Assembly (NCBI RefSeq): GCF_057098645.1 | Contig: NZ_CM169472.1 | Length of the DNA stretch: 64,000 nucleotides | Direction: 5' to 3' (one strand) | In this document: positions 29,881 to 41,800 of the stretch, one piece after another | Layout of the letters: each line of letters begins with the position of its first letter | How positions within the stretch are numbered: position 1 is the stretch's first letter | Made by a program: the position numbers

Positions 29881-32800
29881 TACAGCATCTCAATAAAGGC
29901 CGCGACACGGGTACTGAGCTGCCCGACATCTGAGGTGGAGTAGTCTGTTTCAATAGCGATATAAGGAATGTTGTGCTGCTGACGCACATGACGTTTAATC
30001 GCCAGCGATTCCACCGCGTAGGTATGGCACGCCTGTAAAATCACATCAACTACGCCATCGACCTGATATTCTTCCACCATCTGGCTGAGCATTTTCAGGC
30101 GCTGATCGTTCGGCGAAACACAGGAGCAGCCAATCGCCAGATATTTATCCGCCAGCGCGTCGTAGACATCGCCCGTTTCTGCCACGCATTGCTCGGTCGC
30201 TTTCGCCCCGGTGCAGTTTTCATAACCGACAACCCAGCCGCCATTCTCTTCAATCGCGCGCACCACTTTCTCTGCTGCACCGCCAATCGGGCAGCCGGTG
30301 ATTAAAATGCGCGGACGCGGGTCCAGTCGCTGGCCTTCTTCCCACTGCTGACGAATGCGGGCGGTCATCGCGTCCAGTTCATTGATCAACGCCTCTTTAT
30401 CGAACCGGAAGGTTGCACCGTAAACCACTTTCAGAATGTCGCTGCCGCTAAGCGCCGGAGGATTGAACTGCCCAAGATGATAAAAATTGGCCAGTGCGCG
30501 ACGTTCGCGGTTTTTCAGCGCAATGGCATCGCGCAGAGCATCTTCGCTAATCTCGTGCCCAAAACGTTCTTCCACCGCTTTTTGTAAGCGCAGCATCTCG
30601 GCTTTCCATAACGCACGCGAGGCATCGTCCTTAACGCTGTTCGGCAACTGCATCACATGAACAGGCTTAAACTCCGCCATGTATTCATACATTTTCTTTT
30701 TGCCGTCGCAGGTGGTTTCACCGACCACCAGATCCGAAAAGTAGAAGTAGGGGCATTTATCGGTTTTGCCAAAGCCGTAGCTGCTTTTAATCAGCGGGCA
30801 GAGGTTGCGCGGCAGATCTTTCTCCGCTTCTTCAATGGTTTCATCAGAGGTGGAACAGAGCGAAACCACAACCGCACCGGCTGCCATCGGGATCTCTTGC
30901 GGCATAAAGGTGCAGTAAGTGCCAACCAGCGGAATGCCGCGCTCCTTGAGATCCATGACGGTGAGAAAGCCTTTCTGGCGAGCTTCAGAGAACTGATCGA
31001 AAATGGCGGGTAGATCGGTGACAAGTGACATGATTTTCCTTCCCCGTACCACGGGAGATAATGAAAAGAGGCCACATTATTACCATTCTTTTAGTATGGT
31101 TTATTTGATCTCTCTCGCGGTTAGCCACTTAGTTTTTCATGGATTTCTAAAAATTGCCGAGGGGGAACAAGGCCGGGAGCTGCGACAGCAAATATAAAAT
31201 TAGCCCAATACAACCGCCAACCAGCGTACCGTTGACACGAATAAACTGCAGATCTTTGCCGATATTTAACTCTATTTGCCGCGACATATCCCGGGCATCC
31301 CAGCTTTTTACCGTATCGCTGATGTGGCGCGTCAGGAATGCGGAAAACTCAGGCGCGACGCGGTGCGCGGCTTGTTCCAGATGACCATTTAACGACGCCC
31401 GCAAGGCATCATCGGCAATTAACGTTTCGCCAAACCATTGACCCGCCCGCGCGATACGTTCTTTCACACGAGAATCTTCACTGTTGATATCCGCTTTCAG
31501 CCATTCCCGTAAATCCCCCCCACAATTCAGTGAGATAGCGGTTAAAAGCTTCATCTTCTTTCAGATAACTTTTTACGGCATCGGCTCGCGCTGCCATTTC
31601 CGGATCGTTTTTCAGCTTGTCGATCAGGGCAAAAGTGGCGCGATCAAACGCATGGCGGATCTGATGCGCGCGATCGCGGCTGATATCATCAAGCAAAGAA
31701 TTCACCGCGTCAGAAACCAACTCCGCGCTATGTTCGCCCAGCCATTCGGTGGGCAAAATTTTGGCTTTCAGCGGATGCTCGCTCTCCAGCCAGCGAACAA
31801 TTTGCTGGGCGATAAACTTGCGCGATTTATCGCGCTGGAGAAGGGCGATCAACTGTGCGATCAGCGTATCGAGCAGCACCTGATGACGATCGTTTTTGGT
31901 CATACTCTCCAGCATCAACGCACTGGTTCCGGAAAGATCGACCTTATCAATCGCCCGATGGACCGCGCGCTTAAGCAGGCGCTGAATACGCGCATCATCG
32001 GTCAGTTCAAGAAAACCGCTCATAATCTGCAACAGATGCTGACCAACGCGGCGGGCGTTTTCTGGCTGACTAAACCAGTTGCCAATCAACAACGCCGGTT
32101 CGTGACGTCGAATCAATGCCACCAGCGACTGGGTATCGAGAAATTTTTCCTGCACGAACTGACCGAGATTTTCTCCAATCCGGTCTTTATTACGCGGGAT
32201 AATCGCCGTATGACGAGAAATGATCGGAATTGGCACGCGGCGAAACAGCGCCACCACCGCAAACCAGTCCGCCAGCGCGCCGACCATCGCCGCTTCAGCA
32301 ATCGCCTTCACGCCGCTCACCCAAAAATTGGGCGGCAAAAACAGCGTAACGACAAAGGTAGCAGCGGCGATAAGCAGTAAAGAGAGCGCCAACATTTTGG
32401 CGCGTCTGAGTTCAATGAGTTTATTCATAACGTTAAGAATAGAGCCTGACGGCAGGATCGCGCAAAAATCACCGCTCCTCCGCCAGCTCGGCAGCCTGAT
32501 GTTGGCGCACGCGATTAAGCAATCCGGCCAGGGTGAAAACGACGATAACGCCCGCCACAACGGCTAACAGATGAAACGGCAAGCGACCGCCGTTAAACCA
32601 CAGCCAGCGGCCAATTTCGACCGAGACAGACATCACCATCAGGATCACCATATTCAGCGATGCGGAGACGGTCCCTTTCGGTAAGTTATTGGAAAACAGC
32701 GTAAAGCGGAATAAGGTCGGGAAGATCAAACCAATCCCGAAAGCATACAGACTGGTGCCCAGCACCGACCACAGCCAGACGTGCGGTGACAGCAGATTGC

Positions 32801-38800: not shown

Positions 38801-41800
38801 AGGCCAAAAATTGGCAGGAGTGGACACAGCAGGCAGCAAAACAAGCACTGACCATCAACTGGTACTATGCTGATGTGAACGGCAATATTGGTTATGTTCA
38901 TACTGGTGCTTATCCGGATCGTCAATCAGGCCATGATCCGCGATTACCCGTTCCTGGCACGGGAAAATGGGACTGGAAAGGGCTATTGCCTTTTGAAATG
39001 AACCCTAAGGTGTATAACCCCCAGTCGGGATATATTGCTAACTGGAACAATTCTCCCCAAAAAGATTATCCCGCTTCGGATCTGTTTGCCTTTTTGTGGG
39101 GTGGTGCAGATCGCGTTACGGAGATCGACCGACTGCTTGAGCAAAAGCCACGCTTAACTGCTGATCAGGCATGGGATGTTATTCGCCAAACCAGTCGTCA
39201 GGATCTTAACCTGAGGCTTTTTTTACCTACTCTGCAAGCAGCGACATCTGGTTTGACACAGAGCGATCCGCGCCGTCAGTTGGTGGATACATTAACACGT
39301 TGGGATGGCATCAATTTGCTTAATGATGATGGTAAAACCTGGCAGCAGCCAGGCTCTGCCATCCTGAACGTTTGGCTGACCAGTATGTTGAAGCGTACCG
39401 TAGTGGCTGTTGTACCTATGCCATTTGATAAGTGGTACAGCGCCAGTGGCTACGAAACAACCTAGGACGGTCCAACTGGTTCGCTGAATATAAGTGTTGG
39501 AGCAAAAATTTTGTATGAGGCGGTGCAGGGAGACAAATCACCAATCCCACAGGCGGTTGATCTGTTTGCCGGGAAATCACAGCAGGAGGTTGTGTTGGCT
39601 GCGCTGGAAGATACCTGGGAGACTCTTTCCAAACGCTATGGCAATAATGTGAGTAACTGGAAAACACCTGCAATGGCCTTAACGTTCCGGGCAAATAATT
39701 TCTTTGGCGTACCGCAGGCCGCAGCGGAAGAAGCGCGTCATCAGGCGGAGTATCAAAACCGTGGAACAGAAAACGATATGATTGTCTTCTCACCAACGAC
39801 AAGCGATCGTCCGGTGCTTGCCTGGGATGTGGTCGCACCCGGTCAGAGTGGATTTATTGCTCCCGATGGAACAGTTGATAAGCACTATGAAGATCAGCTG
39901 AAAATGTACGAAAATTTTGGTCGTAAGTCGCTCTGGTTAACGAAGCAGGATGTGGAGGCGCATAAGGAGTCGCAGGAAGTGTTGCACGTTCAGAGATAAT
40001 TAAGCCCGAAAGCCCTCATATTCAGGAGGAATATGAGGGTGATAAAGTCTCAGGTATTGTGATGTTGGAGGGCTGGTTACTTTTTGAGTTCCGCAAACGC
40101 CGCCCGAATCTCTTCCTCCGGCAACTGAATCCCGATAAACACCATCGTGCTATGCGGTTTTTCATCGCCCCACGGGCGGTCCCAGTCGGCGCTGTAGAGG
40201 CGCTGGACGCCCTGGAACAGCAGGCGGTTAGGTTCGCCGTCAATCCACAGCATCCCTTTGTAACGCAGCAGTTTATCTGCCGATTCCAGCAGCAGGTTTT
40301 CCATCACCCGGGAAACTTCGCTGATATCTACCGGGTAATCCAGTTCCACCACAATCGACGAAATATCGTTTTGTTTATCCGCGATAAAGTGGAAACGCGG
40401 TTTGGTGCTGACGACGTTCTCTTCCAGCATAAAACCGTTGGTGTTGAACAGCAGGCCCAGGTCGATGTCGCCGTGGGTGACGGTGTAGACCGGTGCACGG
40501 GCGTTGATGCGCGCCAGGCGTTCGCGCAGTTTTTCTGCTTCGCCTGCGACGTCGGTTTTGGTCAGCAGAATACGGTCGGCGTAGCCAACCTGGGACTGGG
40601 CGATGGTGAACTGATTCATCTGCTCATCGGCATGTACCGCATCCACCAGCGCAATCACGCCGTCCAGCAGGTAACGCTGGCATAAAATCTCATGGGAGAA
40701 AAAGGTCTGAATAATCGGGCCGGGATCGGCCATGCCGGTGCATTCAATGACCAGACGATCGAACTGAATATTGCCCTTATCGAGATTATCCAGCAGGTCG
40801 AGTAGTGCGTCTTCCAGCTCGTTGGAGCGCGAACAGCAGATGCAGCCGTTGGTCAGCGTTTTGATCTGCGTGGCGCGGTCGCCAATCAATTGATCATCAA
40901 CGGAGACTTCGCCGAATTCGTTTTCAATCACGGCAATCTTGTAGCCGTGTTGTTCGTTAAGAATATGGCGCAGCAGGGTGGTTTTGCCCGCGCCTAAAAA
41001 ACCGGTGAGTAGGGTAACTGCAATCGGGTTCATGCTCTCTCCATTAACAACAGCGCATACCGCCTTTACCATCGCCGCCGTAGCGCGCGTTCTGGCGTTC
41101 GCGGAAGAATTCTTCATAGCTCATGTACGGCTTGTCGGGATGGTTGGTCTTCATATGCTCGACGTAGTTGTCGTAGTCTGGAATGCCAATCAACATCTTT
41201 GCCGCCTGGCCGAGATATTTTTTTGCCTGTCCTAAGTTACCAAACATAGTTCACTCTGATAAGAACAAAGCCCCGCCGAAGCGGGGCTAAACACGGTTAG
41301 TGGTGCGAAGAGATCTTCACGCCGCCTTCCGGGATTGGAACGTACGGTGTTTCTTTGTCAGTACGTTTGTCGCTGTTACGCACCGCAAGCCACGTTTTGA
41401 AACCGTAGAAGATGATGCTGTACACCACAATCAGGAACAGAATACTCAGGCCTGCGTTGGTGTAGTTGTTCACAACGATGTGGTTCATGTTGGCAATCTG
41501 CTGCGCCGTCAGGTCAGTACCGTTAGCAATCTTCTCTTTGTACTGGCTTGCCATGTAGAAGAAGCCTTCCATCTGCGGGTTGGTGCTGAACAGTTTCAGG
41601 CCCAGCGCCCAGGTGGTGCAGATAAGCAGCCATACAGCCGGAACAACAGTTACCCAGATGTATTGGGTGCGCTTCATCTTAATCAGCACAACGGTACCCA
41701 GTACCAGCGCTACGGCTGCCAGCATCTGGTTGGAGATACCGAACAGCGGCCACAGGCTCTTAACGCCGCCCAGCGGATCGACCACGCCCTGATACAGCAG

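Follow-up and report, generated by a model that had tools for sequence, protein, structure and literature searches.

Interrupted yjiN, rpnD and pac genes within 9 kb of an Escherichia coli chromosome related to O145:H28 strain RM13514

The Rpn proteins of Escherichia coli K-12 are the closest described counterparts of one of three interrupted genes, rpnD, which together with yjiN and pac lies within about 9 kb of the 64-kb stretch of contig NZ_CM169472.1 analyzed here (64,000 nucleotides; henceforth the window). When overexpressed, RpnD of K-12 ranks with the most toxic of the Rpn paralogues (PMC5350276). Each of the five K-12 rpn genes has also been reported to encode, behind a promoter and start site inside the gene, a small C-terminal protein, RpnS, which acts as antitoxin to the long form, and all five small forms were detected in K-12 while RpnD_L was not (PMC10327210). 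These Rpn_L/Rpn_S pairs are 'gene-within-gene' anti-phage toxin-antitoxin systems (Zhong et al. 2023, PMC10327210). K-12 rpnD itself (yjiP/yjiQ; b4338, b4339, b4584) is listed as a pseudogene (PMC11551758). For pac, the reference system is E. coli penicillin G acylase, the precursor of which is composed of a signal peptide, an alpha subunit, a spacer and a beta subunit. Finally, genomes of Shiga toxin-producing E. coli (STEC) carry lineage-specific pseudogenes flagged by the NCBI Prokaryotic Genome Annotation Pipeline, such as envY (internal stop) and yhbX (frameshifted) in strain RM13514, and lineage-specific pseudogene formation of this kind is already well understood.

The lesions in the window are like these STEC pseudogenes in kind and in density. 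They differ in that three of them lie within 9 kb and in that the yjiN and pac lesions are found in no complete RefSeq genome, being known from draft and read-archive assemblies. We conclude, with a probability of roughly 0.9, that a natural E. coli lineage close to STEC O145:H28 strain RM13514 has independently acquired and vertically inherited three real point mutations, each of which inactivates a dispensable gene. The three lesions should accordingly be taken for normal, lineage-specific decay of genes in a pathogenic E. coli.

Nature of the three lesions

A first-pass annotation, based on the nucleotide sequence alone, had described a yjiN frameshift, an rpnD opal codon and a pac amber codon between intact flanking genes. 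All three lesions are present where it placed them, and 51 of the 54 complete genes of the window translate cleanly, the exceptions being yjiN, the rpnD orthologue and pac. The features concerned are the following.

31147..32428, minus strand: yjiN pseudogene (DUF445 inner-membrane protein), 1,282 nt, not a multiple of 3, with the first in-frame stop at codon 317
31515..31521, minus strand: C7 homopolymer with a +1 insertion (G7 on the coding strand); C6 in relatives, including RM13514
31478..31480, minus strand: premature stop in the shifted yjiN frame, after 304 native and 12 aberrant residues
34168..35112, plus strand: rpnD orthologue pseudogene (Rpn/YhgA-like PD-(D/E)XK nuclease), with an internal stop at codon 40 of 314
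34285..34287, plus strand: opal TGA replacing TGC (Cys40); TGC in intact orthologues
37459..39999, plus strand: pac pseudogene (penicillin G acylase precursor), with a stop at codon 669 of 846
39463..39465, plus strand: amber TAG replacing CAG (Gln669); CAG in RM13514

Intact orthologues of the broken genes are present in strains PapM-32-1, RM12761 and NT1F34. The intact yjiN orthologue matches PF04286 (DUF445; E = 1.3e-119) over residues 44-417. The window allele loses this frame after residue 304 and yields a product of 316 residues, versus 426 for the native protein. RM13514 carries intact copies of both yjiN and pac.

The intact pac orthologue matches PF01804 (Penicil_amidase, an N-terminal nucleophile hydrolase; E = 1.8e-138) over residues 33-834. 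Apart from the amber codon, the 846-codon frame of the window is identical to the RM13514 protein WP_022581255.1, and the motif SNMWVIG, which contains the Ser1 nucleophile of the beta subunit, is present at residue 290. The amber codon falls at residue 380 of the 557 residues of the beta subunit, so that the last 178 are lost and a complete beta subunit cannot be encoded. We would expect no active acylase to be made from this allele unless an amber suppressor is present.

The rpnD orthologue sits between mdtM and yjiR, as rpnD does in K-12. Its frame is collinear with the intact orthologue of RM12761, which matches PF04754 (Transposase_31/YhgA-like; E = 3.3e-86) over residues 8-210, except for the stop. 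As the TGA at codon 40 precedes most of the nuclease domain, a full-length nuclease cannot be encoded. The K-12 pseudogene is alike in position, in family (PF04754) and in having one in-frame stop in an otherwise open frame. It differs in the lesion itself, which is a CAG to TAG change at codon 104 instead of TGC to TGA at codon 40; the window opal is therefore not the K-12 lesion. The two genes also differ in size (945 nt in the window versus 921 nt in K-12), owing to a variable C-terminal tail. Hence, rpnD has been knocked out independently at least two times in E. coli, and each time the frame of the C-terminal tail was spared.

Recoding of the UGA as selenocysteine, conceivable at a cysteine site, was considered and rejected. 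There is no hairpin resembling a selenocysteine insertion sequence, the 60 nt starting at the UGA fold no better than shuffled sequences (z = +0.31), and the flanks of the opal codon are unchanged from Cys-encoding alleles.

Two further observations concern the fragments of this gene in public collections. One source labels a fragment identical to the 258-residue product 3' of the opal codon as 'Escherichia coli ATCC 35150'. Moreover, several Shigella flexneri entries in the same protein cluster are partial Rpn fragments of 200-260 residues, hinting at further independent disruptions of the gene.

Carriers of the lesions and relation to RM13514

The distribution of the lesions was determined in a set of 5,426 complete RefSeq genomes, in which alleles were compared by means of the 81-mer around each lesion. 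The 9-kb stretch matches E. coli chromosomes, and 23 complete genomes match it over its full length at 100.0% identity; almost all of them bear the label O145 or O145:H28 (RM13514, RM12581 and RM9872 among them). Within the 9-kb stretch, RM13514 differs from the window by the extra C in yjiN, by C/T at 39463 and by an intergenic single-nucleotide polymorphism (SNP) at 33757, and by nothing else. Collinearity with RM13514 extends throughout the window, from fimA to lgoD.

The three lesions differ widely in frequency. The opal 81-mer is identical in 27 of the 3,981 complete genomes carrying the Rpn gene, and RefSeq annotates the gene as a pseudogene with an 'internal stop' in RM13514 and RM9154-C1. 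The 258-residue fragment 3' of the opal codon was seen on 794 contigs, several of them labelled O145:H28. The amber allele of pac, on the other hand, occurs in none of the 1,074 complete genomes with this gene, all of which differ from the window 81-mer, and five genomes read directly at codon 669 all have C (CAG, Gln). Likewise, the exact yjiN C7 81-mer of the window occurs in none of the 4,063 complete genomes with yjiN; one other genome of this set matches the 81-mer ungapped, and C7 is carried by one unrelated complete genome, that of strain A29.

Assemblies outside the complete-genome set do carry both private lesions. The exact truncated pac product of 668 residues was found on 24 contigs in 25 blocks of a public assembly collection. 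The exact yjiN product of 316 residues was equally found on 24 contigs in 25 blocks, and is called as a gene in independent assemblies. A protein-cluster table lists 13 contigs for each of the two products, the longest measuring 216.7 kb, versus 794 for the rpn fragment. The carriers originate from an NCBI draft genome (GCA_029357705.1), from ENA (ERZ28749823) and from Logan assemblies (SRR27225942, ERR8531222, SRR32390182, SRR5033736, DRR634178 and SRR26133514).

Every contig of the lineage that covers a lesion site has the base of the window there, that is C7, TGA or TAG. C7 was read in contigs L016, L018, L020, L021 and L023-L027, and TAG in L016-L021 and L023. Identity to the window is 100% in two of these contigs, across 10,033 bp in L018 and 6,490 bp in L019. 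Elsewhere, the carriers differ from the window and from one another, namely at 23855, 30279, 33595, 39096 and 45999 and in a 6-bp repeat, and the lineage must therefore have diversified after it gained the lesions. Contig L021 (ENA ERZ28749823 contig_5611) is noisy, with 17 gap openings in 16 kb and many split genes, and still shows all three lesions together with the lineage markers; it looks like the product of a metagenome or long-read data set.

The relation of the window to its sister genomes was assessed from their sequence differences. The window and RM13514 are separated by 26 scattered SNPs, one homopolymer insertion and, in the window copy of a pentapeptide-repeat gene, two in-frame deletions of repeat units (24 bp and 6 bp). 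Unpolarized, the SNPs comprise 13 non-synonymous (one of them nonsense), 5 synonymous and 8 intergenic changes, with 13 transitions and 13 transversions. Polarization with RM9154-C1, RM12761, PapM-32-1 and NT1F34 assigned 16 SNPs to the window side as derived (4 synonymous, 6 missense, 1 nonsense and 5 intergenic) and 10 to the RM13514 side, where the window has the outgroup allele. Seven of these 10 are common to RM13514 and RM9154-C1 and three are private to RM13514. The window thus stems from a natural lineage that is sister to the sequenced clade of RM13514 type. It has the rpn stop in common with that clade, from which it diverged before the seven changes found in both RM13514 and RM9154-C1 took place. 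The sublineage with the yjiN frameshift and the pac amber splits off outside the 24 complete genomes of O145:H28 type, and this combination of lesions offers a handy marker pair for the small group, so far known from drafts only.

The following sequence of events would account for these data. The oldest change, common to the whole RM13514-type clade, would be a C to A transversion (TGC to TGA) that truncates RpnD, the toxic nuclease, after residue 39. At a later time, in the stem of the small sublineage that includes the window genome, a +1 replication slip in the C6/G6 run would have shifted the yjiN frame, and a C to T transition (CAG to TAG) would have cut the beta subunit of penicillin G acylase at residue 380 of 557. 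The lesions represent three mutation types and date from at least two times, which excludes a single local event as their common cause, and neither a local mutational process nor a data problem is involved. Their proximity would instead result from a stretch of accessory or poorly characterized genes under weak purifying selection, in which disruption is tolerated.

The dispensability of the segment is supported by its distribution, as at least 80% of the 9-kb stretch is held by only 1,068 of the 5,426 complete genomes, with pac in 1,074 and yjiN in 4,063. Two of the three genes have also been inactivated elsewhere, rpnD in K-12 and yjiN in strain A29 and in contig L022. Relaxed selection on accessory functions, one of the explanations offered in the first-pass annotation, is supported by both observations, and weak rather than positive selection presumably let the lesions persist.

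The density of pseudogenes in the window is not exceptional either. As a baseline, 217 kb of RM13514 was sampled, consisting of the window region and three arbitrary stretches of 50 kb. It contains eight pseudogene features, or about 2.4 per 64 kb, against three per 64 kb in the window (P of at least three = 0.42). At this density, chance alone would give about three 9-kb bins with at least three pseudogenes in each genome. A search of the literature yielded no usable pseudogene counts for O145:H28. In the equivalent 64 kb, the sister genomes have frameshifted genes of their own, which served as a further baseline for sporadic pseudogenes.

L013 19649-24888: iatD pseudogene of RM9154-C1
L011 8511-9112: fimB pseudogene of RM12761
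L012 28604-30255: Na+/H+ antiporter pseudogene of RM12761

Two results were named in the first-pass annotation as arguing against a local artefact, namely uniformly high read support for each of the lesions and a genome-wide pseudogene density similar to that here. Both hold by proxy, with independent assemblies supporting the lesions in place of reads, and the 217-kb sample of RM13514 standing in for the genome.

Alternative explanations

Several points weigh against the conclusion that the lesions are real and of independent, neutral origin. Support for them comes by proxy, from independent assemblies and not from raw reads. A +1 in a homopolymer is the classic systematic error, and the carrier assemblies are of unstated sequencing technology. 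Strain A29, the C7 carrier in which mdtM is frameshifted too, may simply have an error-prone assembly. Selection on the three genes was deduced indirectly, and loss of the toxic RpnD could have been positively selected rather than neutral. The yjiN and pac lesions are placed without relative order. Lastly, the probability that three points placed at random in the 64-kb window span no more than 7,948 bp is 0.043; the cluster was picked post hoc, and this value points only weakly to clustering beyond chance.

Among the alternatives, selection for gene loss is the least improbable. In its most far-reaching form, which we consider quite unlikely, the rpnD stops are recurrent, selected 'toxin-off, antitoxin-on' conversions that leave a functional orphan RpnD_S, and separately the yjiN run is a low-frequency reversible G6/G7 switch. 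If this were true, the retained RpnD_S could serve, for example, to neutralize incoming or paralogous Rpn toxins. The window does contain a candidate for such a protein.

34900..35112, plus strand: candidate internal small open reading frame (ORF), RpnS-like C-terminal tail, with a putative start at the ATG of codon 245, preceded by GGGAG (Shine-Dalgarno-like)

There is no stop in codons 41-314 of the window allele, and the window and K-12 stops both lie upstream of the reported internal RpnS start, so that an orphan RpnS-like small protein may still be made. The locus thus resembles the Rpn_L/Rpn_S systems in its open tail frame and in its plausible internal ATG and Shine-Dalgarno-like motif. 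Unlike them, it cannot make the long toxin and would at most yield the orphan small protein predicted from its sequence.

The more general proposal that at least one of the three knock-outs was positively selected, with loss of the RpnD_L toxin and retention of the internal RpnS antitoxin ORF as the best candidate, is in our view quite unlikely. It draws on the lethality of overexpressed RpnD, one of the most lethal paralogues (PMC5350276), on the two independent nonsense mutations (codon 40, and codon 104 in K-12) upstream of a tail that stays open, on the detection of all five RpnS forms but not of RpnD_L in K-12 (PMC10327210), and on the spread of the rpn opal to about 794 contigs. Two events are, however, too few to be told from chance in a gene of which the greater part precedes the tail, and most genomes, among them Santai, PapM-32-1, RM12761 and NT1F34, keep rpnD intact. 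At this divergence, moreover, no selection test is possible. Another candidate under the same proposal, loss of the low-temperature-expressed pac in a gut-adapted pathogen, concerns a lesion that, like that in yjiN, marks a small sublineage (13-25 contigs).

That the yjiN G-run by itself is a contingency locus, switched on and off by reversible slipped-strand mispairing, instead of a dead-end frameshift, we regard as very unlikely. Three backgrounds do show the same +1, namely the window lineage, the unrelated strain A29 and contig L022 (Logan SRR21020349), which marks the run as either a hotspot of slippage or a site of recurrent error. In contig L022, the C7 frameshift is accompanied by an intact pac, and the six flanking marker sites are all of RM13514 type. 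The C7 of this contig is an independent slip, possibly a short conversion tract, and the same six markers rule out a nested order of events (rpn, then yjiN, then pac) with L022 as the intermediate. In A29 (NZ_CP028746.1, 4017900-4020380), yjiN is annotated as 'frameshifted' with the same C7. The adjacent mdtM is annotated as 'frameshifted' as well, and these paired frameshifts suggest an indel-prone assembly rather than biology. Against a switch, a short gene-conversion tract could also account for L022, and assembly error for A29. The run measures only 6-7 bases, C7 is invariant and without mixed states in all lineage contigs covering the site, and in the complete-genome set the 81-mer has the single ungapped match reported above. 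The run does not, therefore, behave as a phase-variable tract.

Sequencing or assembly error, whether behind all three lesions or at least behind the homopolymer frameshift, is scarcely credible. The +1 in a run of 6-7 bases is at a typical error site, neither of the private lesions occurs in any of the 5,426 complete genomes, and A29 shares the C7 next to a frameshifted neighbour. Yet the lesions recur unchanged in assemblies that were produced independently and come from several archives; two of these assemblies match the window at 100% identity over 6.5-10 kb, and the rpn stop is present in 27 complete genomes. Only one of the 73 homopolymer runs of at least 6 bases, that of yjiN, differs from RM13514, and the window has the ancestral outgroup allele at 10 of the 26 SNP sites, which errors would not yield. 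Local sequence-quality problems, as raised in the first-pass annotation, find no support in these results, and the doubt it cast on single-base trust in the rest of the window is not borne out. The window is reliable at single-base level, and other findings within it need no discount.

We attach next to no weight to a mutagenized, hypermutator or long-passaged laboratory lineage with an unselected genome-wide load. A long private branch had at first been suggested by the 26 SNPs, by the ratio of 13 non-synonymous to 5 synonymous changes and by imperfect best matches of 24 kb, and with 13 transitions to 13 transversions the unpolarized changes did resemble such a load, but the idea was dropped after polarization: the 16 window-side SNPs do not significantly exceed the 7-10 on the sister side per 64 kb (P = 0.09 and 0.33), and the spectrum is broad, with neither the transition and indel bias of mismatch-repair loss nor a single class as produced by mutT, mutY or chemical mutagens. 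Within the 64-kb window, the hypermutator signature of a long private branch with a skewed spectrum is absent. Intergenic sites are over-represented among the window-side changes (5 of 16, versus 12% expected; P = 0.037), as expected of natural variation filtered by selection and not of random errors. A random coding substitution in the window creates a stop 3.5% of the time, and one nonsense change among 11 coding SNPs is therefore unremarkable. In addition, the lineage has been sampled repeatedly, in many unrelated runs and with internal diversity. The laboratory origin that the first-pass annotation had put forward as one possibility is likewise not supported, and a natural lineage with ordinary gene decay is preferred.

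Neighbouring genes and other observations

The genes lying between the broken ones are intact.

32469..33701, minus strand: mdtM, intact, between two broken genes
35354..36766, minus strand: yjiR, intact
36943..37107, plus strand: yjiS, intact

In RM13514 (RefSeq), the order is yjiM, yjiN, mdtM, the Rpn-family gene, yjiR, yjiS, penicillin G acylase, yjiA, yjiX, btsT and the hpa cluster. Just 3' of the rpn gene, a 35-bp sequence at 35201-35235 recurs with 97% identity at 11420-11454, in the uxuB-uxuR region, and is probably an intergenic repeat of the repetitive extragenic palindromic type.

RM12761 and RM13516, which represent the other O145:H28 outbreak lineage, are 98.4% identical to the window over yjiL-pac (28900-40000) and near-identical over 40001-64000. 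RM12761 also lacks iatD and the pentapeptide-repeat gene. This pattern indicates a recombination or replacement tract with an end near pac.

The number of tandem repeats in the pentapeptide-repeat gene (26359-28527, minus strand) differs between very closely related genomes, at repeat sites near 26502 and 28165. The products of this gene measure 724 and 740 residues in two lineage contigs and 732 in RM13514, all in frame, and the gene is absent from both RM12761 and NT1F34. Outside this gene, the densest SNP cluster of the window is found in the hpaG-hpaR intergenic region (54326-54464), where a 139-bp stretch of the divergent hpa promoter region contains three SNPs relative to RM13514, of which those at 54326 and 54348 are private to the window lineage.

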